DNA of 64,000 nucleotides from an uncultured Gemmatimonadota bacterium (GCA_964518305.1 CAZFDK010000005.1:8826-72825), one strand, 5' to 3'. Counted from the stretch's first letter, positions 37,312 through 61,110 are shown. Numbers and translations are program-made. Notes: generated by a model from the sequence alone, not told the origin.

Positions 37312-37318
37312 CCCGGCC

Positions 37319-44645: not shown

Positions 44646-44670
44646 GTCACCGATCGCCGCTCCCGCGAAG

Positions 44671-46245
44671 TTACTGGGAGCTGCTGACGTTTACGGTGGG
44701 GGGAGCCTCCATCTGGGGCTCGAGGCTCAGGTTCACACCCAGCCCGTACTGCTCGTTCACCGCGGTGATGGACGCCCGGAGCAGCGCCTCCAGCAGGAAG
44801 GGGTTGTGGACGCCGTTGCCGCTTCCCTTGTGGGAGCCGAAGTGGGTGGGGTTCGATCCCACGGTGAAGTCACCCCACTGCAGCCGGTCGTCGGTGTGAG
44901 CCACCTGCGCGTTCCACAGCGCGCCCTCCGCGATTGTGAAGGTGCTGTCGGCCGGGTTGATCTCGGCCTCGCCCGAGTCGGCCAGCACCTGCGTCAGGAG
45001 CCCGGAGTCGTCCTCCTCGAGGACGTGGTCGCCGTCGGTGTCCGTCCACAGCTGGTCCATGAGGTCGTTGATCCTGTTCTTCGACGTCACGAACAGGTTG
45101 CGTGCCGTCTCGGCGGAGCCGTGGCAGCCGCTCGTCGCGCACGCGTCAAAGCTCTGCTCCTGGATCGTGCAGTCCTCCTTGGGCAGACCCTGGTCGTCCA
45201 GGCAGGGCGTGGCCTCGAAGGTGTGGCCCACGGCCTCGACCTGGAAGTTGCCCTCTTCGTCTGTGATGGTGCGCTGCGCGACGTGGCAGGTGGCGCAGAG
45301 CTCGGGGTTGCCCTCGGAGCCGTGCGACGAAGCGAAGGTCCCGCTCAGGTCCGTGTTCGGGGGAATCCAGCCGACGTCCTCGCCGATTACCAGGTTGCCC
45401 TGGAAGGCGTGCGGGCCGTGCAGGTTCGGCGACGTCAGGCCCGGCGTGCCGCGCCGCGAGTGGCAGCGCACGCAGAGGTTCTCCTCGCTCGGAACGTCGA
45501 TCGGTGCCCGGAGCTGCGCGACATTGTCAGAGCCGTGCGGGTCGTGGCAGGTGGCGCAGGTGATGGACGAGAGCTGATCATCGTCCTTGCCGGCGAAGTT
45601 GGCGTCCACGCCGAACTGGTTCTGCATGGCGGCCTCGCCCTCGTGGCAGTCCAGGCAGGAGCCGCTGACGAAGCCGAAGTCCTTCACGGAGGCGATGCCG
45701 TGGGCGGACTGGGCCCACTGGTTGGTGAAGGGATGGTGGGCGCCGGAGTGGCACTCACCGCAGCCGGTCTCGAGATCCACACCGGCCTGAATGCTGGCCA
45801 GGGGCTGGTTGCCATCCGGGTTCTCGACGTGGCTCTGGCCGGGCCCGTGGCAGGATTCGCACTGGACGTCGTGGTAGCGCTCGGAGTCGACGCCATCGTA
45901 GCCGGCCGCGCCTTCGAAGGAGTTGCCCCGCTCGTTGACGGTGTGGCAGCCCTCGCAGAAGTCCTGCACGCCGTCGCTCTGCTGCAGACCTTCCCATGCC
46001 CCGGCGTGTCCGGACCCCTCCCACTGGCTCTGGGTGCCGGAGTGACAGTTGCCGCAGACGGTGACCTTGGCGTCCTGCTGGCTGTAACCCAGGAAGCCCT
46101 CGGCCGCGGAGGCGGGCTGCTCGAAGAGGGGACGTTCCTGGAAGACGACCTTCTCGTCCACGCAGCCGGTCACCGCGAAGGCCGCGGTCAGCGGGAGGAG
46201 AAGCAGGGCGACTTTCAGGGTTCGCTTTGCGTTCTCCGGAGTCAT
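44671..46245 (-). CDS. Lipoprotein multiheme c-type cytochrome (OmcB-like outer-membrane cytochrome candidate)
   Basis: Start at internal ATG 46245 (MTPENAKRTLKVALLLLPLTAAFAVTGC = lipoprotein signal) with SD GGAGGGAG. CxxCH: CGNCH, CEGCH, CESCH, CGECH, CLDCH, CATCH, CVRCH, CATCH, plus CATSGCH (Cx4CH). Confidence 0.85.
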   Translation of the reverse strand: MTPENAKRTLKVALLLLPLTAAFAVTGCVDEKVVFQERPLFEQPASAAEGFLGYSQQDAKVTVCGNCHSGTQSQWEGSGHAGAWEGLQQSDGVQDFCEGCHTVNERGNSFEGAAGYDGVDSERYHDVQCESCHGPGQSHVENPDGNQPLASIQAGVDLETGCGECHSGAHHPFTNQWAQSAHGIASVKDFGFVSGSCLDCHEGEAAMQNQFGVDANFAGKDDDQLSSITCATCHDPHGSDNVAQLRAPIDVPSEENLCVRCHSRRGTPGLTSPNLHGPHAFQGNLVIGEDVGWIPPNTDLSGTFASSHGSEGNPELCATCHVAQRTITDEEGNFQVEAVGHTFEATPCLDDQGLPKEDCTIQEQSFDACATSGCHGSAETARNLFVTSKNRINDLMDQLWTDTDGDHVLEEDDSGLLTQVLADSGEAEINPADSTFTIAEGALWNAQVAHTDDRLQWGDFTVGSNPTHFGSHKGSGNGVHNPFLLEALLRASITAVNEQYGLGVNLSLEPQMEAPPTVNVSSSQ

Positions 46246-46798
46246 GACCTGCTCCCTCCTCTGTATTCCGTCTCGCGGCGTCCCGTACGGTGTCGCGTCC
46301 GGAACGCCCTCTCTCCCTCCTGGCCACCGTGCGCAGGGTACCGGAACCGCGACCCGACGGACACGATCCCGGCTCACAGTGTGGGCGGAAGCGAAGCTAA
46401 GCAAGCCCTCTGTCCTGCTTCAACCGACTCCCGTCGCGCCGGCCGGAACGGAGGCTACCTCGCGCTCCCGTCGCCGGGAGCCGGCCGGAACCCTGCGCGC
46501 CACCAACGATAGCCCGATCGGCGCGCGTGTCATGTCGGGAGCCCCCGGTGCGGGTTCGTGGGAAGACTCCCCACGTCGACGAAGGCCCTTGCCGGACCCC
46601 CACCGTCCGCTGAGGGGAGGCTTCCCACACGCCTGCGGCGGATTACACCACACCTGCCTCCGTGCGGGCCCCGACAGACGCTTTACGTCGACGTCTCTAG
46701 CTTGCGGTGCGAGCTTGAGGACGGGCCGGATCCGACGCCCGGCGCGCCCCCCGAGCGGCGCGAGCCGCCGGAACGTCCATCATCCCCGGGAGGCACCG

Positions 46799-47983
46799 AT
46801 GTTCGTCCCCAACGAGTACGGCTGGAAGAAGGACGAGACCCTGGCCGAGAACCTGGAGCGCCAGGGCATCAACCGCCGGGAGTTCCTGACATACTGCGGA
46901 GAGATGGGCGTGGTCCTCGGGGTCGGGAGCGCCATGGGGCCCACCATCATGCAGTCCCTCTCCGACCAGCAGCGGCCCAGCGTCATCTGGCTTCAGCTGC
47001 AGGAGTGCACGGGATGCGTGGAGAGCGTCCTCCGCACGGAGTCACCGACCATCGGGGACCTGATCCTGAACAAGCTGTCGCTGGACTATCAGCACACCCT
47101 GATGGCAGCCGCCGGACACCGGGCCGAGGAGGTTCTCCAGCGGACCATGGAGGAGAAGGAGGGAGAGTACCTCCTCGTGGTCACCGGATCGGTGCCGATG
47201 AACGACGGCGGCGTCTACACCACCGTGGGAGGGCGGACTGCACACGACGTGCTCGTGGAGGCCGCCGACGGTGCCGCCGGTGTGATCGCCGTGGGCGCTT
47301 GCGCCCATTACGGAAGCGTCCAGGCCGCTGATCCCAACCCCACGGGCGCCGTCCGGACGGACGAGATCGTCACCGACCAGCCCGTGGTGAACATCGCCGG
47401 GTGTCCGCCGATCGCGGACACCGTCACGGCAACGCTGGTCCACTACCTGACCTTCGGGAGCATGCCGAGCCTCGACGGGGAGGGGCGGCCAGAGTTCGCC
47501 TACGGGGCACGGATCCACGACCAGTGTCCGAAGCGCGCCAACTACGACGCCGGGCAGTTCGTCCAGGAGTTCGACGACGAGGGGGCCCGACGGGGCTGGT
47601 GCCTGTACGAGGTCGGGTGCAAGGGGCCCGCGACCTTCTCGCCGTGCCCCATCTTCCAGTGGAACTCCGGCACGGACTGGCCCATCGGGGCCGGTCACCC
47701 GTGCATCGGATGCACGGAGCCGCACTTCTGGGACTCGATGACCCCGTTCTACGAGAGGCTTCCCGGCGTGGCCGGATTCGGGGTCGAGCGCACGGCCGAC
47801 GAGATCGGCCTCGGCCTGGCCGTCGGAGCCGCCGCGGGCGTCGGAGCTCACGCGGTCGCTACGGGCGTGCAACGCGTGCGTGATAAGAGAAAGGGACGAG
47901 AGCTGCCGGTGGCGGACGAAGACGGCGGTGAGAGCTCGCCCGGAGCCGAGGGTGGCGAATCGAACGCGGAACAGAGGGAGTGA
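46799..47983 (+). CDS. hyaA: [NiFe]-hydrogenase small subunit, Tat-exported, with C-terminal membrane anchor (group 1-like uptake hydrogenase)
   Basis: Twin-arginine signal 'INRREFLTYCGEMGVVLGVGSAMG'. Fe-S cluster Cys motifs (ECTGC…, GCPP…, CPIFQW…HPCIGC). C-terminal hydrophobic helix. Confidence 0.92.
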   Translation: MFVPNEYGWKKDETLAENLERQGINRREFLTYCGEMGVVLGVGSAMGPTIMQSLSDQQRPSVIWLQLQECTGCVESVLRTESPTIGDLILNKLSLDYQHTLMAAAGHRAEEVLQRTMEEKEGEYLLVVTGSVPMNDGGVYTTVGGRTAHDVLVEAADGAAGVIAVGACAHYGSVQAADPNPTGAVRTDEIVTDQPVVNIAGCPPIADTVTATLVHYLTFGSMPSLDGEGRPEFAYGARIHDQCPKRANYDAGQFVQEFDDEGARRGWCLYEVGCKGPATFSPCPIFQWNSGTDWPIGAGHPCIGCTEPHFWDSMTPFYERLPGVAGFGVERTADEIGLGLAVGAAAGVGAHAVATGVQRVRDKRKGRELPVADEDGGESSPGAEGGESNAEQRE

Positions 47984-47986: not shown

Positions 47987-49825
47987 ATGCCGAACCGAGT
48001 CGTCGTCGACCCGATCACCCGAATCGAGGGGCATCTCCGGATCGAGGCCCAGGAGGAGAACGGGCGGATCCAGGACGCCTGGGCTTCGTCCACCCAGTTC
48101 CGCGGCATCGAGACCATCATGGAGGGGCGGGACCCGCGTGACGCCTGGGCGTTCACCCAGCGGATCTGCGGGGTGTGCACCGTGGTGCACGCCATCGCCT
48201 CCCTCCGCGCCGTGGAGGACGCCCTCGACATACGGATCCCGCCGAACGCCAACCTGATCCGGAACATCGTCCACGGCATCCAGACCATCCAGGACCACGT
48301 GATCCACTTCTATCACCTCCACGCCCTGGACTGGGTGGACGTGATGAGCGCCCTCGAGGCCGATCCGGCGGCGGCAGCCGACCTGGCCGGAAAGGTGTCG
48401 CCCTGGCCGAAGCACTCCCGCAACTACTTTCGCGAGATCAAGGGGCGCCTGGAGACGTTCGCGGAGAGCGGACAGCTGGGGATCTTCGCGAACGCCTACT
48501 GGGGGCACGACGCCTACAAGCTGCCCCCGGCCGCCAACCTCATGGCCGTGGCCCACTACCTGGAGGCGCTGGACTGGCAGCGGGATGTCATTCGGATCCA
48601 CACGATCTTCGGGGGCAAGAACCCGCACCCGAACTTCGTGGTGGGCGGGATGGCTTCTGCCATCAACCTGGACGACACGGCCACCATCAACGCCGAGAGC
48701 CTCACGGACATTCACGACATGATCGGCCGCGCCCGGCGCTTCGTGGAGCAGGTGTACTGGCCCGACCTGCTGACCATCGCCTCCTTCTACAAGGAGTGGG
48801 CCGCGATCGGTGACGGGGTGCCCAACTACCTGGCCTGCGGCGAGTTTCCCGAGAACGACGTCCGGGACATCGACTCGCTCTACTTTCCCCGGGGCATCGT
48901 CCTCGACAACGACCTGTCCACGGTGCACGAGTACGACCCCTCTCTGGTGAAGGAGTATGTGGACAGCTCCTGGTACAGCTACGAGGACGGTCCGGGCACG
49001 GGGCTCCACCCATACGACGGCGAGACGACGCCGAACTACACGGGGCCGGAACCGCCCTACGACTACCTGCAGGACGAGGAGAAATACACCTGGATGAAGG
49101 CTCCCCGCTACGAGGGGCGGCCCATGGAGGTCGGCCCGCTGGCGAGGATGCTCGTCGGGTACGCCTCCGGCCACGAGGACATCCAGGACGTCGTCGACGA
49201 CGCCCTCGGTCGGCTGGACGTCGGTCCCGAGGCCCTGTTCTCCACCCTGGGCCGGACGGCTGCGCGCGGTGCCGAGACCGTGCTCCTCGCCCGGAAGATG
49301 GAGGACTGGTACGACCGGCTGGTGCAGCGCATCCGGGGCGGCGACACCCGGACCTTCAACGGCGAGAAGTGGGAGCCGGACACGTGGCCGGAGTCGGCCC
49401 GCGGGTACGGCTACTGTGACGCCGCCCGCGGATCGCTGGGCCACTGGGTACGGATCGAGAACCAGGAGATCTCCCGCTACCAGTGCGTGGTCCCCAGCAC
49501 CTGGAACTGCTCCCCGCGAGACGCCGAGGGGCAGATGGGCCCCTACGAGGCCTCGCTGGTGGACAATCATCCCCTGGCCGATGCCGAGGAGCCGGTGGAG
49601 CTGCTGCGCACGATCCACTCCTTCGACCCCTGCATGGCCTGCGGCGCCCACGTCCTGGACGACCGCGGGAACGTGGTCACCAAGGTGCGGGTGGACCACG
49701 GCACCGGCCTGGGCTTCGGGAGTCCCCCGGACGTGCCCGAGGACGATGTCGGGCGGCCGTCGGACGACGACGCTACCCCGGCCGCGGCCACGCCGGACGC
49801 CTCGGAGGGGGGAGGTGGGTCGTGA
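47987..49825 (+). CDS. hyaB: [NiFe]-hydrogenase large subunit
   Basis: N-terminal 'RIEGH' and 'RICGVCT' Ni-Fe ligands. C-terminal 'DPCMACGAH' followed by a cleavable extension (VLDDRGNVV…). Confidence 0.95.
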   Translation: MPNRVVVDPITRIEGHLRIEAQEENGRIQDAWASSTQFRGIETIMEGRDPRDAWAFTQRICGVCTVVHAIASLRAVEDALDIRIPPNANLIRNIVHGIQTIQDHVIHFYHLHALDWVDVMSALEADPAAAADLAGKVSPWPKHSRNYFREIKGRLETFAESGQLGIFANAYWGHDAYKLPPAANLMAVAHYLEALDWQRDVIRIHTIFGGKNPHPNFVVGGMASAINLDDTATINAESLTDIHDMIGRARRFVEQVYWPDLLTIASFYKEWAAIGDGVPNYLACGEFPENDVRDIDSLYFPRGIVLDNDLSTVHEYDPSLVKEYVDSSWYSYEDGPGTGLHPYDGETTPNYTGPEPPYDYLQDEEKYTWMKAPRYEGRPMEVGPLARMLVGYASGHEDIQDVVDDALGRLDVGPEALFSTLGRTAARGAETVLLARKMEDWYDRLVQRIRGGDTRTFNGEKWEPDTWPESARGYGYCDAARGSLGHWVRIENQEISRYQCVVPSTWNCSPRDAEGQMGPYEASLVDNHPLADAEEPVELLRTIHSFDPCMACGAHVLDDRGNVVTKVRVDHGTGLGFGSPPDVPEDDVGRPSDDDATPAAATPDASEGGGGS

Positions 49826-50601
49826 CTGCTCAGCGGCAGCAGGAGGAAGCCGGCCGTCGCGCCACGCACGAGCCCGAGCGGACGGAGCAGCCCGGCCTGG
49901 GCCCCATCCCCCGTCCGCCGGAGGGCGATTACGAGTGGGTCTACCTGTGGCACTGGCCGATCCGCGCCATGCACTGGGTGGCCGCCGTGGCCATCGTGGC
50001 CCTCGTCGTCACGGGATTCTACATCGGAGCGCCCTATTTCATGACCACCGGCGAGCCGGCGAACCAGTACCTGATGGGGTGGATGCGATTCGTCCACTTC
50101 GCGGCCGCAGGCCTGCTGGTGGCCACCGGGATCGTGCGGGCCTACTGGCTCTTCGTCGGCAACAAGTTCGAGAGCTGGCGAGCCCTGTTCCCGTTCCGGC
50201 GGGAGGACTGGGCCAACATGTGGAAGATCGTGAAGCACTACATGCTGATCGGGGAGGAGGAGCCGGAGTACATGGGCCACAATCCGGTCCAGCAGATTTC
50301 CTATACCGGCCTGTACGCCGTGACCGTCGTGATGGTGCTCACAGGCTTCGCCATGTACGGCCAGTCGAATCCCGACGGCTTCTTCTACGCCACCTTCTCC
50401 TGGGTCAACGGGCTCCTGGGCGGCGTGCAGTACACCCGCTTCGTGCATCACGTCCTGACCTGGGTCTTTCTCATCTTCATTCCGATTCACGTCTACCTGA
50501 CCATCCGGGCCGAGATCACGGAATCCACCGGCACGGTCTCGTCCATGGTGAGCGGCGGGCGGTTCCTGCCGCGGGGCGAGGAGTTCGTCGATGAGGAGTG
50601 A
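49822..50601 (+). CDS. hyaC: Ni/Fe-hydrogenase b-type cytochrome subunit
   Basis: GTG start overlapping the hyaB stop (GTGA). Four TM helices with conserved His (…WHWPIRAMHWV…FVHFAAAG…VHHVLTW…). Confidence 0.85.
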   Translation: MTAQRQQEEAGRRATHEPERTEQPGLGPIPRPPEGDYEWVYLWHWPIRAMHWVAAVAIVALVVTGFYIGAPYFMTTGEPANQYLMGWMRFVHFAAAGLLVATGIVRAYWLFVGNKFESWRALFPFRREDWANMWKIVKHYMLIGEEEPEYMGHNPVQQISYTGLYAVTVVMVLTGFAMYGQSNPDGFFYATFSWVNGLLGGVQYTRFVHHVLTWVFLIFIPIHVYLTIRAEITESTGTVSSMVSGGRFLPRGEEFVDEE

Positions 50602-51184
50602 TCGCCCCGGAGAGGCCGGAGCGAGGCGCCGGCCCCGCCCCGGGGGAGCTCCGCCCGGGACGGGAGCACGGGTCGTCGTCATCGGCCTGGGGAACCCGCT
50701 CCTGGCGGACGACGGGGTCGGGCTGGCCGCGCTGGCGCGCCTCCGGGAGGAGTGGAGCCTCCCTTCCGACGTGGAGCTGCTGGACGGAGGCACGTGGGGA
50801 ATGATGCTCCTGCCCGCCGTGGAGGACGCCGACCGCCTGCTCCTGCTGGACGCCATCGACGTGGACGAGGAGCCCGGCGCCACGGTCGTCCTGGAGCGGG
50901 ACGAGCTGCCCCTCTTCCTCGACGGCAAGGTCTCCACGCATCAGGTGGGCATCCGGGAGGTCCTGGCCCTCGCGTCGCTTCGGGGGACCCTCCCGGAGGA
51001 GACGGTGGCCGTGGGCCTGCAGCCCGCCGAGGTGACCACCGAGACCGCCCTCAGCCCGGAGGCGGTGGCCGGCCTGGACGACCTGGTCGTCCGAGCCGTG
51101 GAGCGCCTCAGGGGTTGGGGGGTCGGTGCCGAGCACCAGGCCTCCGGGGGCGAGAGCACGCTGGCCGAGCCCGGCCGGGCCTGA
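50591..51184 (+). CDS. hyaD: Hydrogenase maturation endopeptidase (HyaD/HybD family)
   Basis: 'VVVIGLGNPLLADDGVGLAA…LLDGGTWGMMLL…LLLLDAID' = HycI/HyaD protease motifs. Confidence 0.85.
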   Translation: MRSDRPGEAGARRRPRPGGAPPGTGARVVVIGLGNPLLADDGVGLAALARLREEWSLPSDVELLDGGTWGMMLLPAVEDADRLLLLDAIDVDEEPGATVVLERDELPLFLDGKVSTHQVGIREVLALASLRGTLPEETVAVGLQPAEVTTETALSPEAVAGLDDLVVRAVERLRGWGVGAEHQASGGESTLAEPGRA

Positions 51185-51228: not shown

Positions 51229-51666
51229 GTGCACGAGATGAGTCTCGCCATGGAGGTGGGGCGAATGGCCGCCGAGCAGGTGGACCGGGAGGCCCTGCCC
51301 CGCGTCTCGGCCGTCGGCGTGGAGGTGGGCGACCGGGCGGGCGTGGTGGTCGATGCCCTGGAGTTCTGCCTCGAGGCCGTGCTCACCGAGCCCCCCTTCG
51401 ATGAGGCCCGTCCGGTGGTGGAGCGCTGCCGGGGCGACGTCCTCCGGCTGTCGTGGATCGACGTGGAGGAGGAAGAGGACGGGAGAGTGGAGGACGACCG
51501 GAGCGACGGCGAAGCGGCGCTGGATCGAGCCGCGGCCGGCACGACGGGCGGAAGGAGCGGGCCGAGCCCGCTGGGGGATGCGCCGCTCCCCTCCGAGGCC
51601 GGTCCGCCGCCCGGCGCCGGAGACGGAAGCAGAGCAGACTCGAACGAACGGGAAGGTGTCCGATGA
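51229..51666 (+). CDS. hypA: HypA-like hydrogenase Ni-insertion protein, atypical (lacks the Zn-finger cysteines)
   Basis: GTG start giving 'MHEMSLAMEVGRMAAEQV…', where the MHE N-terminus is the HypA Ni-binding motif. The C-terminal half is acidic/low-complexity (…DVEEEEDGRVEDDRSDGE…) with no CxxC…CxxC pair. Confidence 0.55.
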   Translation: MHEMSLAMEVGRMAAEQVDREALPRVSAVGVEVGDRAGVVVDALEFCLEAVLTEPPFDEARPVVERCRGDVLRLSWIDVEEEEDGRVEDDRSDGEAALDRAAAGTTGGRSGPSPLGDAPLPSEAGPPPGAGDGSRADSNEREGVR

Positions 51667-52355
51667 CGGTCCGCCGCATTCAGGTGCGCGAGAAAGTGAT
51701 GAAGAAAAACGACGAGCTGGCGGCCGACGTGCGGAGCCGGCTCACCGATTCGGGAGTGATCACCTACAACCTGGTCTCCTCGCCGGGGTCCGGGAAGACG
51801 GCCCTCCTGGAGGGCACGCTGGAGCGGCTGGACGCCGAGTTCCCCATCGCCGTCGTCACCGGAGACGTGCAGACGGAGAACGACGCGAACCGAATCGCGC
51901 GCCTCACGCCGCGGCTCGTGCAGGCCGTGGTCACCGACGGGGCGTGCCACCTGGACGCCCGGCAGGTCTCCGAGGCCCTGGACGCCGTGGACCTGGACGA
52001 GACGCGTCTCCTGTTCATCGAGAACGTGGGCAACCTGGTCTGTCCCGCGAGCTGGGACCTGGGCGAGCAGGACAAGGTCGTGCTGTTCTCGGTGACGGAG
52101 GGCGAGGACAAGCCGGTCAAGTACCCGAAGATGTTCCGGCTCGCCAGCTATGCGGTGATCACGAAGATGGACCTGCTCCCGCACCTGGACTTCGACGTCG
52201 ACCGGGCGGTGGAGCACGCCCGCGAGATCAATCCCGACCTCCGCTTCTTCTTCACCTCGGCCCGTAGCGGCGAGGGCATGGAGGAGTGGTGCGACTTCCT
52301 CCGATCCGAGGTCGGGACCGGGGAGTTCGCCCGAGCGTCGCTGGGCACCGACTAG
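51663..52355 (+). CDS. hypB: Hydrogenase nickel incorporation GTPase HypB
   Basis: Internal ATG 51663 of the 300-aa track ORF. G1 'SSPGSGKTALL', CH motif region '…GACHLDA…', G3 'FIENVGNLVCP'. No His-rich N-terminal tract. Confidence 0.88.
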   Translation: MTVRRIQVREKVMKKNDELAADVRSRLTDSGVITYNLVSSPGSGKTALLEGTLERLDAEFPIAVVTGDVQTENDANRIARLTPRLVQAVVTDGACHLDARQVSEALDAVDLDETRLLFIENVGNLVCPASWDLGEQDKVVLFSVTEGEDKPVKYPKMFRLASYAVITKMDLLPHLDFDVDRAVEHAREINPDLRFFFTSARSGEGMEEWCDFLRSEVGTGEFARASLGTD

Positions 52356-52378: not shown

Positions 52379-52705
52379 ATGTGTCTGGGCGTGCCGGGCA
52401 GGGTGGTCGAGGTGAAGGGCGACGTCGCCGTCGTGGACTTCTGGGGCGTTCGGCGCGAGACGCGGCTCGACGTGGTCGACGAGCCGGTGTCGCCGGGCGA
52501 CTACATCCTCAACCACGTGGGCTTCGCGATCCGCAAGATCCCGGAGTCCGAGATCGGAGAGACGCTGGCCCTGTACAGCGAGCTGCTGGAGGAGGCCGGA
52601 GAGGACATGATGGCCGAGGACGTGCGCGACGAAATCGAGCAGGCGAGCATGCCCTCGTCGGATCCCGAGCCGGGCGTGCCGTCCGGCCTGGAGGGAAGCC
52701 GATGA
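52379..52705 (+). CDS. hypC: Hydrogenase assembly chaperone HypC/HupF
   Basis: Begins 'MCLGVPGRVVEV' (essential Cys2); ~108 aa. Confidence 0.88.
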   Translation: MCLGVPGRVVEVKGDVAVVDFWGVRRETRLDVVDEPVSPGDYILNHVGFAIRKIPESEIGETLALYSELLEEAGEDMMAEDVRDEIEQASMPSSDPEPGVPSGLEGSR

Positions 52706-53883
52706 GCGACGCGGTCGGAGGGCCCACGCCTGCCGCTCCCCCCGCGCCGGGCCCCACCGGCGGCGCCGGCGAGTCGGTGGGGGAGCTCAAGTTTCGTGAT
52801 CCCGAGAAGGCGCAGGCCCTGTCGGAGGCCCTCGAGCGGGTGGTGGGCGAGGTGGACCGGGACTCGGTCTCGGTCATGCACGTGTGCGGGAGCCACGAGC
52901 AGTCCATCGCCAAGTACGGCATCCGGACCATCCTCCCGGAGGCGCTGGACGTGATCATGGGGCCGGGCTGCCCGGTCTGCGTCACCGACATGCCCGAGGT
53001 GGACGAGGCCGTGGCGCTGGCCCGGCAGGGCGTCCGGGTCGCCACCTACGGCGACATGCTGCAGGTGCCGGGGACGGTGTCCTCCCTGGCCGACGCCCAG
53101 GCCGGCGGAGCCGAGGTGGACGTGGTGTACAGCGCCTCCCAGGCCGTGGAGCTGGCGCGGGAGACCGACGACGAGGTGGTCTTCTTCGCCAGCGGCTTCG
53201 AGACCACCGCCGTGGCCACCGCCGCCGTGGTGCTGGACGACCCGCCGGACAACTTCTCGGTGCTCTCGGCGCACAAGTACATCCCGCCGGTCATGGAGAT
53301 CGTGGCCGAGATGCCCCACACCCGGGTGGAGGGTTACCTGGCCGCGGGGCACGCCGCCACGATCACCGGCTCCGGCCTCTTCGAGCGCTTCGTGGACCGT
53401 CACCGCATCCCGGTGGCCGTGGCCGGATTCGAGCCCCTGGACGTGCTGGCCGGCCTGGTCCAGCTCGTGGAGCTCGTTCGGGACGGGGAGCCCCGCGTCG
53501 TGAACATGTATCCGCGGTGCGTCACCGAGGAGGGGAACCGGAACGCCCAGGAGCAGCTGTGGGAGGTGTTCCGCACCACGGGCGGCAAGTGGCGGGGCAT
53601 CGCTCACGTCCCCAACGGCAACCTGCGGATCCGGGACGAGTATGCGGGCGTCGACGCCCGCCGGCGCTTCGACATCGACGTCGGCGCGCTCCGGCGCGGC
53701 TCCCCGACCCCCCTGACGCAGGCCTGCATCTGCGGTGACATCATGGCCGGCCGATCCTCGCCCCACGATTGCCCGCTCTTCGGCGAGGAGTGCACGCCGG
53801 AGAATCCGGTGGGCGCCTGCATGGTGAGCAGCGAGGGCACCTGCAAGATCTGGCACCAGTACGGAGGACATCCCGACCTATGA
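52702..53883 (+). CDS. hypD: Hydrogenase formation protein HypD
   Basis: Conserved 'CGSHEQ', 'GPGCPVCV', and C-terminal 'CxCGDIMAG…CPLFGEECTPENPVGACMVSSEGTC' Fe-S motifs. ATGA overlaps at both ends. Confidence 0.92.
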   Translation: MSDAVGGPTPAAPPAPGPTGGAGESVGELKFRDPEKAQALSEALERVVGEVDRDSVSVMHVCGSHEQSIAKYGIRTILPEALDVIMGPGCPVCVTDMPEVDEAVALARQGVRVATYGDMLQVPGTVSSLADAQAGGAEVDVVYSASQAVELARETDDEVVFFASGFETTAVATAAVVLDDPPDNFSVLSAHKYIPPVMEIVAEMPHTRVEGYLAAGHAATITGSGLFERFVDRHRIPVAVAGFEPLDVLAGLVQLVELVRDGEPRVVNMYPRCVTEEGNRNAQEQLWEVFRTTGGKWRGIAHVPNGNLRIRDEYAGVDARRRFDIDVGALRRGSPTPLTQACICGDIMAGRSSPHDCPLFGEECTPENPVGACMVSSEGTCKIWHQYGGHPDL

Positions 53884-54953
53884 GCGAGGCCGCGCGGAGG
53901 AACGGACGGGAAGCGGGAGGCCCGACGACGGCCGTCGAGAAGGTCACCCTCAAGCACGGCGCCGGGGGCGGCGCCATGCGTCAGTTGATCGAGGAGTCGC
54001 TGGCGGCGGGCTTCCTGGACGAGCGCGACGGCGAGGTCGGGCTCTCCGCCATGGACGACGGGGCCGCCTTCGGGCTGCCCGACGGCCGCTGGCTCGTCCT
54101 GACCACCGACTCCCACGTCATCCATCCCTACCGCTTCCCCGGCGGAGACATCGGCCGCCTCGCGGTGGCCGGGACGGTGAACGATCTGGCCATGATGGGT
54201 GCTGCCGAGCCGCTGGGGCTCACCTCGGCGATGGTCGTGGAGGAGGGCCTGCCCCGGGACGAGCTCGAGGAGATTCAGTCTTCGATGCGGGCTACCTGCC
54301 GGGAGGCGGGAACCCGCGTCGTCACGGGCGACACCAAGGTCATGGGCCGCGGCGAGATCGACGGGATCGTGATCAACACCACGGGCGTGGGGTTCGCCGA
54401 TCCGCTGGTCCGGGATTCCGGCCTCCGGCCCGGGGACCGCGTCATCCTCACTGGGGAGATCGGTGATCACGGAATCGCCCTCATGGCGCTCCGCCACGAG
54501 CTGGACCTCCGGGGTGACCTGGTCTCGGACGTGGCCCCGCTCAACGGTCTGGTGGGACGGGCTCTCGGGGCCGCCGACGGCGGCATTACGGCCCTCAAGG
54601 ACCCGACCCGCGGCGGCGTGGCCAGCGCCCTGCACGAGATGGCGGAGAAGGCCGGCGTCTCGGTCGTGGTGCAGGAGCGGGCCGTCCCCGTCTCCGACGT
54701 GGTACGGTCGGCGGCCGAGATGCTGGGCCTGGACCCCTTCCACATCGCCAACGAGGGGAAGGCCCTGCTGGGCGTGCGCCCGGGATCGGCGCAGGCGGTG
54801 CTGGAGGCCATCCGGGAGCATCCGGCCGGCGGTCGCGCCGCCATCGTCGGTGAGGTCTCGGACGATCATCCCGGCCGGGTCGTACTGGACACCGGAATCG
54901 GGCGGCGACTGGTGACGGAGCCGCAGGGCGAGCCCCTGCCCCGGATCTGCTGA
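53880..54953 (+). CDS. hypE: Hydrogenase maturation carbamoyl dehydratase HypE
   Basis: AIR-synthase-like fold. Ends with the diagnostic C-terminal 'PRIC' (reactive Cys). Confidence 0.92.
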   Translation: MSEAARRNGREAGGPTTAVEKVTLKHGAGGGAMRQLIEESLAAGFLDERDGEVGLSAMDDGAAFGLPDGRWLVLTTDSHVIHPYRFPGGDIGRLAVAGTVNDLAMMGAAEPLGLTSAMVVEEGLPRDELEEIQSSMRATCREAGTRVVTGDTKVMGRGEIDGIVINTTGVGFADPLVRDSGLRPGDRVILTGEIGDHGIALMALRHELDLRGDLVSDVAPLNGLVGRALGAADGGITALKDPTRGGVASALHEMAEKAGVSVVVQERAVPVSDVVRSAAEMLGLDPFHIANEGKALLGVRPGSAQAVLEAIREHPAGGRAAIVGEVSDDHPGRVVLDTGIGRRLVTEPQGEPLPRIC

Positions 54954-55750
54954 TGCGCGTGGGCGTCCTCACCTCGGCCCGGGCACCGGGGCTGGAGCGG
55001 CTTCTGGAGCGGAGCGCCGGAAGCGGTTCGCCGTATCGCATCGCCGGTCTGGTGGCAAGCGACCCCGAGAGTTCGGCGGTGACGGCGGCGGAGGCGGCAG
55101 GCGTGCCCACCGCGGTGCACGACCTGGAGACCTTCTGCCGCCGACGCGGCGCGGACATCGGCGACCGTGAGGTCCGGGAGGCCTTCGACCGGCAGCTGGC
55201 GCTCCGGCTCCGCTCCTTCGGCGCCGAGGCCGTGGTCATGTGCGGCTACCTGTGGATCGCCACGCGCGCCCTGCTCGAGGCGTTTCCGGACAGGGTGTTC
55301 AACATCCACGACGCGGACCTGACGCTCCGGGGCGAAGACGGCGTGCCCCGGTACCGCGGACTGCGCTCGACGCGGGACGCGGTGTTCGCCGGCGAGCCGG
55401 AGACGCGAAGCACGGTGCACCTGGCCACGGAGCGTGTGGATGTCGGTCCGCCGCTGCTCCTCTCCGGGCCCTTCCCGGTCCACCCCATGGTCGAAGAGGC
55501 CCGCGAATGGCGCGCCGAGGACCTCCTGGAGGCCTACGCGTACGCTCAGCGCGAGTGGATGATGAAGGCGTGCTGGGGAACGCTACTGGACCGGACCCTC
55601 GAGCTGGGGGCCCTGGGGCGGATCCGTGTCCCCGACGACGGCCCGATCACGGTGAACGGAGAGGCCGCACCGGCGGAGCTGGACGAGCGCCACGCTCGTG
55701 CGGGATCCGGCGGACCGGAGGCACTCCGCGCGGTCGGGGGGCGTCCGTGA
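54953..55750 (+). CDS. hypX: Formyltransferase-domain protein; putative N-terminal module of a split HypX (hydrogenase CO-ligand synthase)
   Basis: 265 aa PurN/Fmt-like: 'MRVGVLTSARAPGLERLL…' and 'VFNIHDADLTLRG' (equivalent of NIHPSLLP). TGATG overlap with hypE. Directly followed by a crotonase-fold gene, reproducing the two-domain HypX architecture. Confidence 0.6.
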   Translation: MRVGVLTSARAPGLERLLERSAGSGSPYRIAGLVASDPESSAVTAAEAAGVPTAVHDLETFCRRRGADIGDREVREAFDRQLALRLRSFGAEAVVMCGYLWIATRALLEAFPDRVFNIHDADLTLRGEDGVPRYRGLRSTRDAVFAGEPETRSTVHLATERVDVGPPLLLSGPFPVHPMVEEAREWRAEDLLEAYAYAQREWMMKACWGTLLDRTLELGALGRIRVPDDGPITVNGEAAPAELDERHARAGSGGPEALRAVGGRP

Positions 55751-55767
55751 CGGCGGCCGCGGACGGC

Positions 55768-56616
55768 ATGGAGAACATCCGCATGGAGCGGGAGGGCGGG
55801 GTGGGGATCATCACCATCGACCGCCCGGACCGCTTCAACTCCCTGGACGTGTCCACGGCGAAGGATTTCCGGAAGGCGGGGCTCCAGTATTCCCGCGAGG
55901 AGGACGTCCGGGCCGTGGTCCTCCGCGGCCGCGGCGACGTGTTCTGCAGCGGCGCCGACCTGAAGTACGTGCGGGACCACGGCGACGAGGAGGACTTCGG
56001 CTACCTGCAGCCCGAGGGAGTGGGGGCCGAGGAGGGCGGTCACGGCCGGGCCTTCAAGGAGATCCTGGAGTACATCCACAGCGCGATCTCGGAGATGAAG
56101 CGTGCACCGAAGCCCTTCCTGGCCGGCGTGGACGGCATGGCGGCGGCCGGGGGCTTCGGCATCGCCATGGCCTGCGACCTGGTCTTCGCGTCGGAGGACG
56201 CCCGCTTCGAGTGGGCCTACCACAAGACCGGTCTCACCGGGGCCGAGAGCTCCACCTTCTTCCTGCCCCGGCTCCTCGGGCTCCGAAAAGCGCTGGAGCT
56301 GGTGTTTCTGAACCCCCGGCTGAGCGCCCGGGAGGCCGCGGAGATGGGGCTGGTGAACCGGGTGTGGGCGGCGGAGGACTTCGACGACGAGCTGAGGGGC
56401 GTGGCCCGGGAGCTCGCCTCCGGGCCCACGGAGGCCTACGCCGTCGCCAAGCGGCTGGTGCACCAGGCCGCCGGCATCGACCAGCTGGACTACCACATGG
56501 ACGAGGAGCTTGAGAACCTGTCGCGGATCGCCGACGGCGAGGACTTCGCCGAGGGGCTGGAGGCCTTCTTCGAGGGGCGAAAACCCGACTTCGGCGGCGG
56601 GGACGTGTCCCGATGA
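55768..56616 (+). CDS. hypX: Enoyl-CoA hydratase/isomerase (crotonase)-fold protein; putative C-terminal module of a split HypX
   Basis: 'MENIRMEREGGVGIITIDRPDRFNSLD…VVLRGRGDVFCSGADL…FLAGVDGMAAAGGFGIAMACDLVFASEDARF' = crotonase oxyanion-hole motifs. Alternative GTG start at 55747 would overlap the formyltransferase stop. The two genes are in different reading frames. Confidence 0.6.
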   Translation: MENIRMEREGGVGIITIDRPDRFNSLDVSTAKDFRKAGLQYSREEDVRAVVLRGRGDVFCSGADLKYVRDHGDEEDFGYLQPEGVGAEEGGHGRAFKEILEYIHSAISEMKRAPKPFLAGVDGMAAAGGFGIAMACDLVFASEDARFEWAYHKTGLTGAESSTFFLPRLLGLRKALELVFLNPRLSAREAAEMGLVNRVWAAEDFDDELRGVARELASGPTEAYAVAKRLVHQAAGIDQLDYHMDEELENLSRIADGEDFAEGLEAFFEGRKPDFGGGDVSR

Positions 56617-57257
56617 CTGCCGCGTTGGAGGGGGCGCTGATCGGGCTGGTGGCCGGCGCCGGCCACGTGCTGGCCGGCGCCGACCACCTGGCGGTGGTCT
56701 CCCCGCTGGCCGCCAGCCGCCGGTCCGGCGCGTGGCGGACCGGCTTGCGGTGGGGGCTCGGCCACGCCGGCGGGGTGGCGGTGATCGGGGTGGCGGCGGC
56801 CCTGCTGCGGGAAGCGCTCCCCATGGAGCAGGTCACGGCGTGGAGCGAGCGGGCGGTGGGCATCAGCCTCATGGCCGTCGGGCTGTGGGCCCTGACGGCC
56901 GTGGTTCGGGTCCTGAGAGAATCCGAGGACGGCGATGGCCCCTCGCACGAGGTCCTGCATGGTCGGGAGGGGCGCGCGGCGTTCGCCGTGGGGCTTTTGC
57001 ACGGCACGGCCGGGGCCGGCCACGTCCTGGGCGTGCTGCCGGCCCTGGCGCTGCCCACCCGGCTCGGATCCATCGCCTACCTCCTCTCCTTCGCCGCCGG
57101 CACCGTGGCGGCGATGACGGTCTACGCGGCGGTGGTCGGCCAGGCCGGGCGGCGTCTGTCGCTCTCCGGACGCAACGCCTACGCGGGTCTGCTGGCCGGA
57201 TGCTCGGCCCTGTCGGTGGTCGTCGGGGCCTTCTGGCTCGGGCTGGTGGGGCCGTAG
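56613..57257 (+). CDS. hupE: HupE/UreJ-family membrane protein (putative Ni2+ uptake for hydrogenase)
   Basis: Two internally repeated halves each with an 'AG(A)GHVLxGxDHL'-type motif (GAGHVLAGADHLAVV; GTAGAGHVLGVLPAL). ~6 TM helices. Terminal gene of the hyp operon. Confidence 0.5.
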   Translation: MTAALEGALIGLVAGAGHVLAGADHLAVVSPLAASRRSGAWRTGLRWGLGHAGGVAVIGVAAALLREALPMEQVTAWSERAVGISLMAVGLWALTAVVRVLRESEDGDGPSHEVLHGREGRAAFAVGLLHGTAGAGHVLGVLPALALPTRLGSIAYLLSFAAGTVAAMTVYAAVVGQAGRRLSLSGRNAYAGLLAGCSALSVVVGAFWLGLVGP

Positions 57258-57275: not shown

Positions 57276-58232
57276 TCAGACGGCCAGTCCCGCGGCGAAG
57301 AGAGTCGCGTACGCGACGGCGAGCTGTCCCGCCTGCGGCGTGAGAGGCAGGAGATGCTTCCAGCGGTCGGCCCTCCTGACTCTCCGGAAGATCACGACGG
57401 CGTACGGAGCCGTCAGCAGGGGGAGGAGCACGGCGACGTCGTGACCGGAGCGCGGCACGAACCAGACGGGAACGGCGTACGCCAGGGCCGTGAGGACGCC
57501 CATCTCCACCTCCGTCCAGTCCCGGCCGATGATCACGGCCAGCGTCCGCTCCCCCTTCTCGCGATCGAAGCGAAGATCACGGATGTTGTCGATGAGGAGG
57601 ATGTTCGTGATCAGCGCGGCCATGGGCAGGCCGGCGGCCACCGACTCCAGCGTCAGCGCGTCTCCGGGTACGCCCGTCGGGAAACCCGTCGCCAGGTTCG
57701 ACGCGGCCTGGACGTAGTAGGTGCCGGAGACCGAGACGATGCCGAAGAATAGGAAGAAGAGCGGGTCGCCGAGTCCGCGGTCGCCGAGCCGGAGCGGATC
57801 GGACGAGTACGCCAGGCTGGCGCCGGCGCTGACGACCCCGAGGGCGAGCGCCGGCAGGCCACCGATCCGGACCAGGTAGGCGCCCGGGACCGCCGCCAGC
57901 AGGTAGCATCCGGCGGTGGCCCGGGCCAGGAGACGGAGGTCGACGACGCCCGCCTCCAGGGCACGGACCAGGAGCGGGTGCTCACGATCGTCGGGATGGC
58001 GGCGGAGGTTGTGGTAGTTGTCCGCGATCACTCCGCCGAGCTGGATCAGCCATCCGGCGGCCAGGGCCGCGGTCGCTGCCCACGGGGCGAAGACGCCGTC
58101 GTGGAGGGCGAGGCCCGCGGCCACGACGACCGGTGCCAGCGCGGTGGGAAGAGTGTGGCGCGGATAGACGAGCATCCGCACCCAGACGTCGCGCCGGGTG
58201 GGGACCTCGGTTGACGGGGAGGGGGCCGACAT
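57276..58232 (-). CDS. UbiA-family aromatic prenyltransferase (MenA-like)
   Basis: 318 aa, 8-9 TM. Asp-rich motif region 'IADNYHNLRRHPDDREHP' and second motif '…DNIRDLRFDREKGERT' consistent with UbiA/MenA. Confidence 0.65.
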   Translation of the reverse strand: MSAPSPSTEVPTRRDVWVRMLVYPRHTLPTALAPVVVAAGLALHDGVFAPWAATAALAAGWLIQLGGVIADNYHNLRRHPDDREHPLLVRALEAGVVDLRLLARATAGCYLLAAVPGAYLVRIGGLPALALGVVSAGASLAYSSDPLRLGDRGLGDPLFFLFFGIVSVSGTYYVQAASNLATGFPTGVPGDALTLESVAAGLPMAALITNILLIDNIRDLRFDREKGERTLAVIIGRDWTEVEMGVLTALAYAVPVWFVPRSGHDVAVLLPLLTAPYAVVIFRRVRRADRWKHLLPLTPQAGQLAVAYATLFAAGLAV

Positions 58233-58367
58233 GCAGGGGTTTCTCGTGGTCGGGGACGGAACCGACGGGGTCGAAGCTGGATATCATGTGGAGAGACTCC
58301 GCGGGACGCCAGCGTTCGTGCCGGCTACCGTGGATTGGTCAGGTCAGCGCGGGAGGAGAGAGTAGCG

Positions 58368-59765
58368 ATGAGCATGTCCTGGCTACCGGGGCCCGGCGAG
58401 GCAGTCCTGATGCTGCAGCATATGCAGCAGCCGGGCCCGCACACCCGCCCCGGCGAGGAGATGGGCGCCCCGCTTCCCGGCGGGATCGCCGAGGTGCTGC
58501 GATTCTTCTTCTCCGGCGTCCCGCAGTGGATCCAGATCGGCGGGGCGATTCTCGGCTTCATCGTGGCCGTATGGCTGGCCGTCTTCCTGTGGAACCGTCG
58601 TCTCGAGATCTGGGAGTGGATCCGCACCCGTCCGGCGATGGTCCAGTCCGCGATGGGGCTGGCCGTGGTGATCTTCATCACCGGCGCGGCCTGGTTCGGC
58701 CAGGAGGCGTGGAACTACACGCAGCACGAGAATGCCTTCTGCGTCTCCTGCCACGTGATGGGGGGCTCCTTCGAGCGCTTCACGCAGAGCGAGCACTCTG
58801 AGCTCGAGTGCCACGACTGTCACCAGCAGCCCATCAGCGCCAGCATGCGGCAGGTCTACCTCTGGGTGGTGGAGCGCCCCGAGGAGATCGGGGGGCACGC
58901 GCCGGTCGCGAACGAGGTCTGTGCGGAGTGCCACATCCAGTCGGATCCGGACAGCACCTGGCAGCGCATCGCGGCCACCGCCGGCCACCGGATCCACCTG
59001 GAGTCGGATTCCTCCGCGCTGGAGGACGTGATGTGCGTTACCTGCCACGGGGAGGAGGTGCACCGATTCGTGCCGGCCGACCAGACCTGCGCCCAGTCGG
59101 ACTGCCACGCCGAGAGCGACACCGAGATCGTACTGGGCAAGATGGCCTCCTCCCAGACCACCTTCCACTGCCTGAGCTGCCACGAATACACGGCTCCGGC
59201 CCCGGAGCAGGCCTCGCTGGACACCGCCCTGACGGCGCTCAGCCCCTCCCGCACGCAGTGCCTGGCGTGTCACGAGATGCAGGAGGAACTGGAGACGCTC
59301 CAGGTGGGCGAGGACCCCCACGGCCCCGGGTGCGGCCAGTGCCACAACCCGCACTCACAGGAGCAGCCGGATGTGGCCTTCGCCACCTGTACGGGCGCCG
59401 GATGCCACGCGAGCCCCGACACCCTGACGCCCTTCCACCGGGACCTGGCCGGGGCGAAGCTCGAGGACTGCGCCGCCTGCCACGAGGCCCATACGTGGGA
59501 GGTGGAGGGAAGCAACTGCGGTGCGTGCCACGCGGACATCGCCGGCGCCGAGCCGGGGGAGCCGCTTCCGGGCGACCATCCGGAGATGAATGTCGGTGAC
59601 ACGGCGGTGGCTGCATCGGGACTCCCGGACGGCCACCCCTCAGTGAGGGCGTCGGGCGACCTCCCCGCCGTGTCGACCGTCCGGGGCGAGCTTCCCGAGG
59701 GGCATCCGTCGATGCCGCCGAGGTGGCGGTCGCTGCCCTCCGACCACCCGTCCGTGCAACCTTAA
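58368..59765 (+). CDS. Membrane-anchored multiheme c-type cytochrome with C-terminal (LPxGHPS)x4 repeats
   Basis: Start ATG 58368 after GGGAGGAGAG. N-terminal TM (GGAILGFIVAVWLAVFLW) plus a second TM. CxxCH: CVSCH, CHDCH, CAECH, CVTCH, CLSCH, CLACH, CGQCH, CAACH, CGACH, plus CAQSDCH and CTGAGCH (Cx4CH). C-terminal tail 'LPGDHPEM…LPDGHPSV…LPEGHPSM…LPSDHPSV'. Confidence 0.85.
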   Translation: MSMSWLPGPGEAVLMLQHMQQPGPHTRPGEEMGAPLPGGIAEVLRFFFSGVPQWIQIGGAILGFIVAVWLAVFLWNRRLEIWEWIRTRPAMVQSAMGLAVVIFITGAAWFGQEAWNYTQHENAFCVSCHVMGGSFERFTQSEHSELECHDCHQQPISASMRQVYLWVVERPEEIGGHAPVANEVCAECHIQSDPDSTWQRIAATAGHRIHLESDSSALEDVMCVTCHGEEVHRFVPADQTCAQSDCHAESDTEIVLGKMASSQTTFHCLSCHEYTAPAPEQASLDTALTALSPSRTQCLACHEMQEELETLQVGEDPHGPGCGQCHNPHSQEQPDVAFATCTGAGCHASPDTLTPFHRDLAGAKLEDCAACHEAHTWEVEGSNCGACHADIAGAEPGEPLPGDHPEMNVGDTAVAASGLPDGHPSVRASGDLPAVSTVRGELPEGHPSMPPRWRSLPSDHPSVQP

Positions 59766-59892: not shown

Positions 59893-61110
59893 ATGGCCGA
59901 ACGACCTGGTGACGACACGATCCGTTTCCATCCACCGGTCCGACGGCCGGCGACCGGCCGAGCACCGTCGGCCGTGCTCGTCGCGCTGGCCCTTGTCCTG
60001 ACCCTTCCTGTCGCCCTCCCCGCACAGGAGTCCGGCGTCGTGGCGGCGGCGGACGTGGCCTCGGGCGACGTCTCGCTCCTCGATGCCACCTGCTGGGGCG
60101 TGGCGGCCCGGATGAGCATGGGGGGAGAGGTCCATCAGCTGTCGCCGGCGTCGGGAGGAGCCCGAGCCTACGTGGCGCATTCGGTGCGGCGGCCCGGTGC
60201 ATCCGGGAACGGCGGAGCCGATCGGGGACCGGCGCCTCCGGCCGAGGCGAAGAGCGTCGCCGCGGTGGGGGCCGTGACGGTGCTGGATCTGGCGGCGCGG
60301 CGGACCACGGGCCGGTTCCATCTCGGGCGCACCGGGACCATCACGGACGTGTGGGCGGGGCACGAGGGGAGCCGCATCTGGGTCGCGGCGGAGCGGAACG
60401 GCCGAGTGCTCACGCTCGACGCGGACACCGGTGAGCTCCTGATGAAGTGGACGATCGGAGAGAGCTCCCCGCAGTCCGGGGCCGTGAGCCGCGACGACCG
60501 CTATCTCTTCGTCACGAACCGCGAGGCCGGGACCCTGACCGTCATCGATCGCGTGACCGTGGCGGCGAACACGGTACCGCTGGGCCGGGGTGTCGGGAGC
60601 GTGGCCGTCGGTCCGCAGGGCGAGGCATGGGTCGCCGATCGGGACGACGACCGCCTGTGGATCGTGGACGGGCGCTCGGAGGAGGTCCTGGGCGAGCTAC
60701 CGTCGGGCGGGTCGGTTCCCGTTCAGCTTCAGCGGCGTCCCGGTGCCGAGGAGATGTGGGCCCTCCACTCGGACAGCGGCGGGGTGCAGATCTTCGACAC
60801 CGGGGGACTGCGGCGGGTCGGGAGCGTGCAGCTGCCGGGCCGGCCGCGCGCTCTCCGCTTCTCGCCCGACGGCCGGCGAGCGCTGGTGACGGTGCCGGAC
60901 CCGGGCCTCGTGGTCATGGTCGATGCGGTCGGGCGGCGGGTGCTGGACACGGCGCGCGTTCCCCTGCGGCCGGGTGCCCTGGGCTGGTTCCCCTGCCCGG
61001 ACGGCCGTTGCGGGCCCGGTGCCTCCCGGTGGCGAAAGGGCCGAGCGGGGCTCCCCGGCGAGCACTGGAGCAAGGCCGACCTGGTCGGCGACCTGTGGTG
61101 CGGCGGCTGA
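59893..61110 (+). CDS. Secreted beta-propeller protein (YVTN/lactonase-type 7-bladed propeller-like)
   Basis: Signal peptide (…VLVALALVLTLPVALPAQES). Repeated '…G…(V/L)xVxDxxxxxV…' blade pattern, e.g. 'RYLFVTNREAGTLTVID', 'EAWVADRDDDRLWIVD', 'RALVTVPDPGLVVMVD'. Confidence 0.6.
   Translation: MAERPGDDTIRFHPPVRRPATGRAPSAVLVALALVLTLPVALPAQESGVVAAADVASGDVSLLDATCWGVAARMSMGGEVHQLSPASGGARAYVAHSVRRPGASGNGGADRGPAPPAEAKSVAAVGAVTVLDLAARRTTGRFHLGRTGTITDVWAGHEGSRIWVAAERNGRVLTLDADTGELLMKWTIGESSPQSGAVSRDDRYLFVTNREAGTLTVIDRVTVAANTVPLGRGVGSVAVGPQGEAWVADRDDDRLWIVDGRSEEVLGELPSGGSVPVQLQRRPGAEEMWALHSDSGGVQIFDTGGLRRVGSVQLPGRPRALRFSPDGRRALVTVPDPGLVVMVDAVGRRVLDTARVPLRPGALGWFPCPDGRCGPGASRWRKGRAGLPGEHWSKADLVGDLWCGG

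Follow-up and report, generated by a model that had tools for sequence, protein, structure and literature searches.

A PurN-type formyltransferase and a crotonase paired in [NiFe]-hydrogenase maturation clusters: a probable two-component counterpart of HypX

A 64,000-nucleotide stretch of DNA from an uncultured Gemmatimonadota bacterium (GCA_964518305.1, CAZFDK010000005.1:8826-72825; the whole stretch is called the window below) carries a [NiFe]-hydrogenase operon in which hypE is directly followed by a gene for a formyltransferase (FT) and a gene for a crotonase-fold protein (ECH). FT and ECH probably act together as a two-component counterpart or analogue of HypX, supplying the CO ligand of the [NiFe] hydrogenase. 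The pair is best read as sharing the decarbonylase lineage of HypX and using a formyl-transfer module that is not orthologous to that of HypX. To our knowledge, HypX is the only enzyme known for the synthesis of the CO ligand of [NiFe] hydrogenases. The original prediction, made from the window alone, had called the two genes a split HypX. This name fits their position in the hyp cluster and fits ECH, which carries the Tyr and Glu of HypX, but it does not fit FT, which is of the PurN type, whereas HypX's N-terminal domain is of the Fmt type.

FT and ECH are real, separate genes that form a conserved pair in hyp clusters. In the window they are two tightly abutted open reading frames (ORFs) in frames 2 and 1, as originally described, with a 4-nt stop/start overlap if ECH begins at GTG, and the alternative ATG of ECH (55768) lies 17 nt past the FT stop. 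P0520, the NCBI record of this protein, begins at the GTG and has 289 aa, with 100% identity to ECH. On the other side, the hypE stop and the FT ATG share 1 nt (TGATG), and the ECH stop forms a 4-nt ATGA overlap with the downstream ATG. Such overlaps occur at 7 of the 11 junctions of the operon, including each one from hypC through the membrane-protein gene, and this translational coupling suggests equimolar synthesis of FT and ECH.

The change of frame between the two genes had raised the possibility of a canonical fused hypX that was broken by a sequencing indel, or that is read by a programmed -1 frameshift at the run of six G residues at 55736-55741. The two frames are one apart, no stop interrupts the ECH frame upstream as far as 55240, and the GGGGGG run lies 6 nt ahead of the FT stop; however, at the G+C content of the window (71%) long alternative frames without stops are to be expected. 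The arrangement was compared in 5 assembly-collection neighbourhoods and 80 species-representative genomes, scored by tblastn. FT and ECH are in different frames at all 75 loci where they share a strand; the 4-nt overlap is available at 58 of these, and the other junctions are gaps of 1-65 nt, apart from one 200-nt gap that holds a 63-aa ORF. At three haloarchaeal loci the two genes are on opposite strands. No FT-ECH fusion was present among 150 crotonase cluster representatives, and the 154 FT homologues that were detected are all stand-alone proteins of 165-312 aa. The best 120 homologues of HypX, by comparison, are 566-639 aa long, in keeping with the earlier statement that known HypX proteins are fused. 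The C-terminal tail of FT (residues ~225-265) is disordered and unconserved, and the two proteins are merely 27-28% identical to HypX. Because two frames are found everywhere, the gaps vary, the strands can be opposite, and no fusion was seen, an indel or a programmed frameshift is untenable, and we give a fused hypX at this junction next to no probability; the genuinely split arrangement, which had been named as the other option, is the one that stands. Some long crotonase representatives (e.g. P0374) were considered as fusions and rejected as chimeric gene calls with HypE fragments. The 63-aa ORF between FT and ECH belongs to one Gemmatimonadota lineage (L004, 10827-11018; L005, 861-1052) and has no family match.

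The pair is also linked to the hyp genes. ECH adjoins FT in 78 of the 80 loci, and the remaining two contigs stop within 68 nt of FT; hypD and/or hypE were found in 79 of the 80, and the one exception is a contig that begins with FT. The order is hypD-hypE-FT-ECH at 68 loci and hypD-FT-ECH-hypE at 6, and in the three haloarchaea it is divergent, so that the linkage of FT-ECH with hypD/E outlasts rearrangement and spans Bacteria and Archaea. Most hosts are Gemmatimonadota and Acidobacteriota (Thermoanaerobaculia, Vicinamibacterales), and further hosts are single metagenome-assembled genomes (MAGs) of Nitrospiria, 'Deltaproteobacteria' and 'Actinomycetes', together with three Halobacteria. The nearest relative of the window is a contig annotated as Candidatus Palauibacterales (Gemmatimonadota), whose proteins are 77-93% identical. 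In the haloarchaeal loci (L051, Natronomonas sp. LN261; L059 and L062, Halobacteria MAGs), FT and ECH lie head-to-head with hypE on one side and hypF on the other, and the neighbouring [NiFe] hydrogenase is a distant one, at 28-31% identity to the large subunit of the window; this distribution implies inter-domain transfer of the FT-ECH module. Identity of the large subunits at the loci to that of the window spans 76% to 28%, and the pair therefore follows the hypCDE core, which assembles the Fe(CN)2CO unit, rather than any single hydrogenase class. No canonical hypX was found within 10 kb of the examined loci. Natronomonas sp. LN261 is the sole cultured host that was seen.

On the sequence evidence, ECH is specifically related to HypX's C-terminal domain and keeps the residues that are essential in HypX. 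BLASTP against the C-terminal domain of Cupriavidus necator HypX (L009:13681-15474) gave 28% identity (E 1e-12), and alignment of the ECH family with this domain by hhalign gave a probability of 98.9% over 235 columns. Tyr158 and Glu167 of ECH align with Tyr439 and Glu449 of ReHypX, equivalent to Tyr416 and Glu426 of AaHypX, in BLASTP, hhalign and MAFFT alignments, and both are invariant in 121 members of the ECH family. In HypX, Tyr416 and Glu426 are candidate bases for the decarbonylation of formyl-CoA (CoA, coenzyme A), and their mutation gives a HypX-minus phenotype (PMC6802093). The Glu167 motif is L-T-G-A-E-S-S-T-F, with G-A-E where HypX has G-S-E. Its specificity was evaluated by an exhaustive search of 1.84 billion representatives, from which 150 cluster representatives at 50% identity were obtained, 125 of them outside the family. 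Glu167 occurs in 1 of these 125 nearest non-family crotonases, within another motif, and 113 have the PaaG-type Asp (P-D-G) at the motif; Glu167 within G-A-E is the only apparent feature that discriminates the ECH family from its neighbours. Against a hidden Markov model (HMM) of the HypX C-terminal domain, the ECH family scored a mean of 63.9 bits and the neighbours 41.0 bits, and the two ranges overlap in part. In a neighbour-joining tree the ECH family and the HypX C-terminal domains formed one clade apart from 45 neighbours, with a bootstrap value of 83/100 that falls to 59/100 without the divergent member P0372. The assignment of this crotonase to HypX in the original prediction agrees with the retained Tyr and Glu.

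The characterised crotonases nearest to ECH are PaaG and 'oxepin-CoA hydrolase, alternative type' (TIGR02280, NF046063; PDB 3hrx, 6sl9, 2ej5). The best PDB sequences were 2ej5 and Thermus thermophilus PaaG (E 1e-36 to 1e-39), and a search with the structure model returned a generic crotonase fold. The best NCBIfam models were NF046063 (169.9 bits; cut-off 300) and TIGR02280 PaaG (157.6 bits; cut-off 345), which are also the best crotonase models for the HypX C-terminal domain. ECH shares the oxyanion-hole motifs with PaaG, and its segments F-C-S-G-A-D-L and A-A-G-G are conserved. The two differ in the active site: a Phe of PaaG is Tyr in ECH, and the position of the catalytic Asp136 of PaaG is Ala166, followed by the family-specific Glu167. 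ECH is below the family cut-offs and has neither Asp136 nor the Glu pair of hydratases, so it was not assigned to the PaaG or enoyl-CoA hydratase families. It also has a conserved insertion of ~20 residues (~72-96) that is missing in PaaG and is not confidently alignable to HypX.

FT is predicted to have a PurN fold without being a PurN. Its AlphaFold2 model has a mean predicted local distance difference test (pLDDT) score of 93.7, and the best Foldseek matches are PurN, i.e., glycinamide ribonucleotide (GAR) transformylases (template modelling score ~0.8-0.87 on the target), with PurU next and Fmt, ArnA and FDH from rank 36. FT shares with PurN the fold, the folate-binding core and the Asn-His-Asp catalytic residues, with which its Asn117, His119 and Asp163 align. 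The motif N117-I-H119-D-A-D122-L-T-L-R-G, already pointed out as divergent, is a real feature of the family: N117, H119, D122 and D163 are invariant and D120 is nearly so, and N-x-H-P-S-L-L of PurN is N-x-H-D-x-D-L in FT. The loop GSGTN, which binds the phosphate of GAR, is replaced by ARAPG in FT (within S-A-R-A-P-G-L), and R10, A11, P12, G13 and L14 are nearly invariant. The catalytic His is followed by an insertion of 8 residues, and a helix AYAYAQREWMM is conserved. Since the GAR loop is rebuilt, GAR is presumed not to be the acceptor. The score against TIGR00639 (PurN) was 80.3 bits, which misses the equivalog cut-off of 150.1. Because of this score, the replaced GAR loop and the absence of a purine-synthesis context, FT is not considered a PurN; within the PurN/Fmt-like range of the original description it is of the PurN type, as both HMM and fold indicate.

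These features bear on another explanation, in which FT and ECH are ordinary PurN-like and PaaG- or enoyl-CoA hydratase-like paralogues that are simply carried along in the operon and play no part in hydrogenase maturation. It is how the pipelines annotate the two proteins (database labels are PurN for one and PaaG or 'enoyl-CoA hydratase-related' for the other), and PurN and PaaG are the best PDB and fold matches. However, both proteins score far under the equivalog cut-offs (80 against 150 bits and 158 against 345 bits), the PaaG Asp has become Ala, and the GAR loop of PurN has been replaced. The linkage to hypD/E is kept in 79 of 80 species, across phyla and in archaea, despite rearrangements, and neither purine-synthesis nor phenylacetate genes were found near the FT-ECH loci; of PurN and FT, only FT has a hyp-operon context. 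We consider that there is only a slight chance that the pair consists of such paralogues.

A two-component counterpart of HypX is the more probable explanation, and the likeness to HypX/HoxX extends to position and composition. HypX/HoxX (C. necator pHG1; Aquifex aeolicus, PDB 6J0P) is the CO-ligand synthase that depends on N10-formyl-tetrahydrofolate (N10-formyl-THF); it forms CO by way of formyl-CoA, and hydrogenase maturation requires it in the presence of O2. Its gene on pHG1 is directly 3' of hypE, the place taken by the FT-ECH pair, and both systems consist of a formyl-THF transferase module plus a crotonase module. The formyl-transfer residues His74 and Asp109 of HypX have their counterparts in His119 and Asp163, which are invariant in FT. 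The systems differ in that HypX is one polypeptide of ~570-640 aa and FT and ECH are two, and in that the N-terminal module of HypX consists of PF00551 and PF02911 with fmt as the best NCBIfam model (the Fmt/FDH/ArnA type), whereas FT is a single-domain protein of the PurN type. HypX also has a C-terminal tail (…NFYGFDPSYH…; Arg542 contacts CoA) that is not present in ECH. With only ~27-28% identity between HypX and FT or ECH, the pair is not orthologous to the complete HypX. NCBIfam holds no dedicated HypX model.

In the proposed mechanism, the FT site formed by Asn117, His119 and Asp163 would move the formyl group from N10-formyl-THF to the thiol of CoA, giving formyl-CoA. The oxyanion hole of ECH would then bind formyl-CoA, and Tyr158 and Glu167 would decarbonylate it, as in HypX, to CO and CoA. 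The CO would be passed to the iron bound by HypCD for the Fe(CN)2CO unit. CoA is retained between the two domains of HypX (PMC6802093; PMC12134894), and by analogy FT and ECH possibly form a complex that channels or protects the labile formyl-CoA. As to the HypX-type function that was originally proposed, the hypX position, the conservation of the pair, and the Tyr and Glu argue strongly for a functional counterpart, and the N-terminal module is the part that does not correspond to that of HypX.

The pair could also take part in hydrogenase maturation with other chemistry, such as formylating a Hyp protein or a small acceptor, or processing a different acyl-CoA. Synteny argues for a maturation role and not for any particular reaction; the acceptor loop of FT is rebuilt and its specificity is not indicated by the sequence, and ECH has the insertion at ~72-96 that PaaG does not have and that cannot be aligned confidently to HypX. 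Against such chemistry, the two residues on which HypX activity depends are matched by Tyr158 and Glu167, and the crotonase always occurs beside a formyl-THF-type transferase, which belongs to either of two subfamilies. A formyl-CoA intermediate is the simplest explanation for the recurrence of two transferase subfamilies with the crotonase. A reaction other than CO-ligand synthesis is therefore judged unlikely, with about a fifth of our confidence resting on it.

The second transferase subfamily comes from another split form. On a 3-kb Logan contig (L090, SRR12113385_689752, 224-2968), the single contig on which this form was seen, hypE is followed by a separate Fmt-type transferase and then by a separate crotonase (P0372). 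The transferase has 291 aa, contains PF00551 and PF02911 with the motif H-P-S-L-L-P-D-H-R-G, and is 28% identical to the HypX N-terminal domain (E 8e-13). P0372 keeps the Tyr and the Glu (motif S-A-E), is 41% identical to ECH, and lies next to the HypX C-terminal domains in the neighbour-joining tree. Because the identity to HypX is just 28-29%, L090 is not a broken canonical hypX, and through its Fmt-type transferase the L090 pair is closer to canonical HypX than FT-ECH is. This comparison suggests a variable formyl-donor module beside a constant element, the Glu-bearing crotonase. It is conceivable, at somewhat less than even probability, that an ancient CO-ligand synthase of modular build had the Glu-bearing crotonase as its conserved core and recruited its formyl-donor partner at least twice (PurN-type here, Fmt-type in L090 and HypX), canonical HypX being the fused form of the Fmt-type pair. 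As a control, the closest crotonase without Glu167 (P0369 of L091-L093; 45% identity, motif LPGAAGVTF) was inspected, and its neighbourhood contains DUF3047 and TIR-domain genes and none of the hyp genes.

Several observations weigh against a HypX-type function for the pair. By overall sequence and fold, FT looks like an ordinary PurN and ECH like an ordinary PaaG-type crotonase, and HypX (6J0P) is outside the top 50-60 PDB hits for both, in a fold-level comparison that cannot separate a HypX-like function from a generic PurN or crotonase. In FT, hhalign with the HypX N-terminal domain was marginal (55.6% probability, E 1e-4), and PF00551 is present alone, without the Formyl_trans_C subdomain. 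Asp120 and Asp122 are conserved beside His119, but the spacing is unlike the H-x5-D of HypX, and a counterpart of Asp80, the residue that orients His74 in the modified triad of HypX, is not assignable. The transfer module is considered non-orthologous to the HypX N-terminal domain because FT is PurN-type, the HypX domain is Fmt-type, and the profile match is marginal. In ECH, Tyr158 is not diagnostic; it was rejected as a HypX-specific signature since 91 of the 125 neighbouring generic crotonases also have it. The neighbour-joining tree gives moderate support, with a long branch for HypX. Alignment by hhalign stops at residue 547 of HypX, and the C-terminus of ECH is that of an ordinary crotonase, without the CoA-contacting tail of HypX. 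The active-site loop 159-172 of the ECH model has low confidence, as has the insertion 72-96; both may become ordered only with a ligand or partner, which is speculation from the model. The last two points concern oxygen. The small subunit of the window does not have the two supernumerary proximal-cluster Cys residues of the O2-tolerant group 1d enzymes, and some host lineages may be anaerobes; both points leave the 'aerobic' rationale of a HypX-like enzyme tentative.

The original prediction had placed the pair in the context of O2-tolerant hydrogenases. Aligned with HoxK, the small subunit has CTGC and G-S where group 1d has CTCC and G-C, and the O2-tolerant framing is unproven because these extra cysteines are missing; the hydrogenase served by the FT-ECH pair is predicted not to be of the classical O2-tolerant type. 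Cytochrome oxidase genes are close by in several Gemmatimonadota loci. COX1 and COX2 genes with a 45-46-aa ORF recur ~5-9 kb downstream of ECH in L001, L004 and L006, which hints at an aerobic lifestyle of these hosts, and a P-type ATPase gene is additionally found near the hyp/FT/ECH cluster in L001 and L006.

On the modular reading given above, a PurN-type pair, not HypX, would be the main route to the CO ligand in Gemmatimonadota and Acidobacteriota, which are dominant soil phyla, and would be used in haloarchaea as well. If the proposed function is correct, the route from formyl-THF through formyl-CoA to CO would reach abundant, mostly uncultured H2-oxidising lineages and archaea. This would account for the apparent lack of hypX in these genomes and would correct the 'PurN' and 'PaaG' labels. 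With the two half-reactions on separate proteins, formyl-CoA formation, decarbonylation and channelling would be separately testable, and the pair would serve as a compact cassette for producing hydrogenases aerobically in heterologous hosts. It would also suggest that HypX originated by fusion of a transferase to a dedicated decarbonylase. A review from 2025 (PMC12134894) presents HypX as one fused polypeptide and gives Rhizobium leguminosarum and C. necator as the organisms in which it was characterised. Neither a split nor a PurN-type HypX was found described in the searchable full-text literature (including PMC6802093, PMC12134894 and PMC6176080), which leaves out most subscription journals, and an earlier description may exist.

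FT and ECH belong to one tightly packed [NiFe]-hydrogenase operon on the + strand, from ~46.8 to 57.3 kb, whose genes are listed in Table 1.

Table 1. Genes of the [NiFe]-hydrogenase operon and the FT/ECH junction in the window
Feature	Position	Strand	Evidence and remarks
[NiFe] hydrogenase small subunit	46799-47983	+	TIGR00391, 440 bits; Tat signal; standard CTGC motif
[NiFe] hydrogenase large subunit	47987-49825	+	PF00374, 768 bits
b-type cytochrome subunit	49822-50601	+	TIGR02125, 192 bits
hupD-type maturation endopeptidase	50591-51184	+	TIGR00140, 135.5 bits (cut-off 151.8, missed); TIGR00072 hydrogenase maturation protease, 131.2 bits (cut-off 47.45, passed)
Short hypA-like gene	51229-51666	+	PF01155, 36 bits, profile positions 2-67 of 112; sequence start VHEMSLAM
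hypB (CobW/HypB GTPase)	51663-52355	+	PF02492, 65 bits; ATG 51663 overlaps hypA stop
hypC	52379-52705	+	PF01455, 84 bits
hypD	52702-53883	+	TIGR00075, 401 bits; PF01924, 425 bits
hypE	53880-54953	+	TIGR02124, 376 bits; ATG 53880 overlaps hypD stop; own stop overlaps FT start by 1 nt
FT, stand-alone PurN-type formyltransferase, 265 aa, ATG, frame 2	54953-55750	+	Pfam Formyl_trans_N (PF00551), 60.6 bits
ECH, crotonase-fold protein, 289 aa, frame 1	55747-56616	+	Pfam ECH_1 (PF00378), 163 bits
GTGA stop/start overlap of FT and ECH	55747-55750	+	FT stop TGA 55748-55750; GTG 55747
214-aa membrane protein, ~6 predicted transmembrane segments (hydropathy)	56613-57257	+	ECH stop overlaps ATG

A search of the whole 64 kb by tblastn with Gemmatimonadota HypF gave no match at E<=1e-8, which bears out the reported absence of hypF from the window. 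In most relatives hypF is within the cluster, and in the closest relative it is missing there also; the absence is probably positional only, with the gene encoded elsewhere. The name hupE, given earlier to the membrane protein that follows ECH, has no HMM support: this protein belongs to no Pfam or NCBIfam family and has no match to a HupE/UreJ HMM even at E<=10. It contains two G-H-V-L-(A)G motifs (GHVLAGADH, residues 17-25; GAGHVLG, 135-141) and is kept after ECH in the Gemmatimonadota loci L004, L008, L018, L022, L024 and L026. In the hypA-like gene, the HypA profile is matched by the N-terminal half only and the translation shows no CxxC zinc motifs; short HypA genes (82-134 aa) are called in related loci, too.

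Multihaem c-type cytochrome genes lie on both sides of the operon, at 42373-46419 on the - strand and at 58335-59765 on the + strand. The upstream, divergent multihaem genes are MtrC/c7/c554-like, and the downstream region contains a NapC/NirT and c7-like gene, a UbiA prenyltransferase gene (57276-58232, - strand), and a cytochrome d1-like/beta-propeller ORF (59893-61110). The layout of the flanking cytochromes is repeated in the closest relative (L008). Further upstream, the window carries an A/V-type ATPase operon (subunits A, B, C/AC39, E and I) at 32099-39805 on the - strand.

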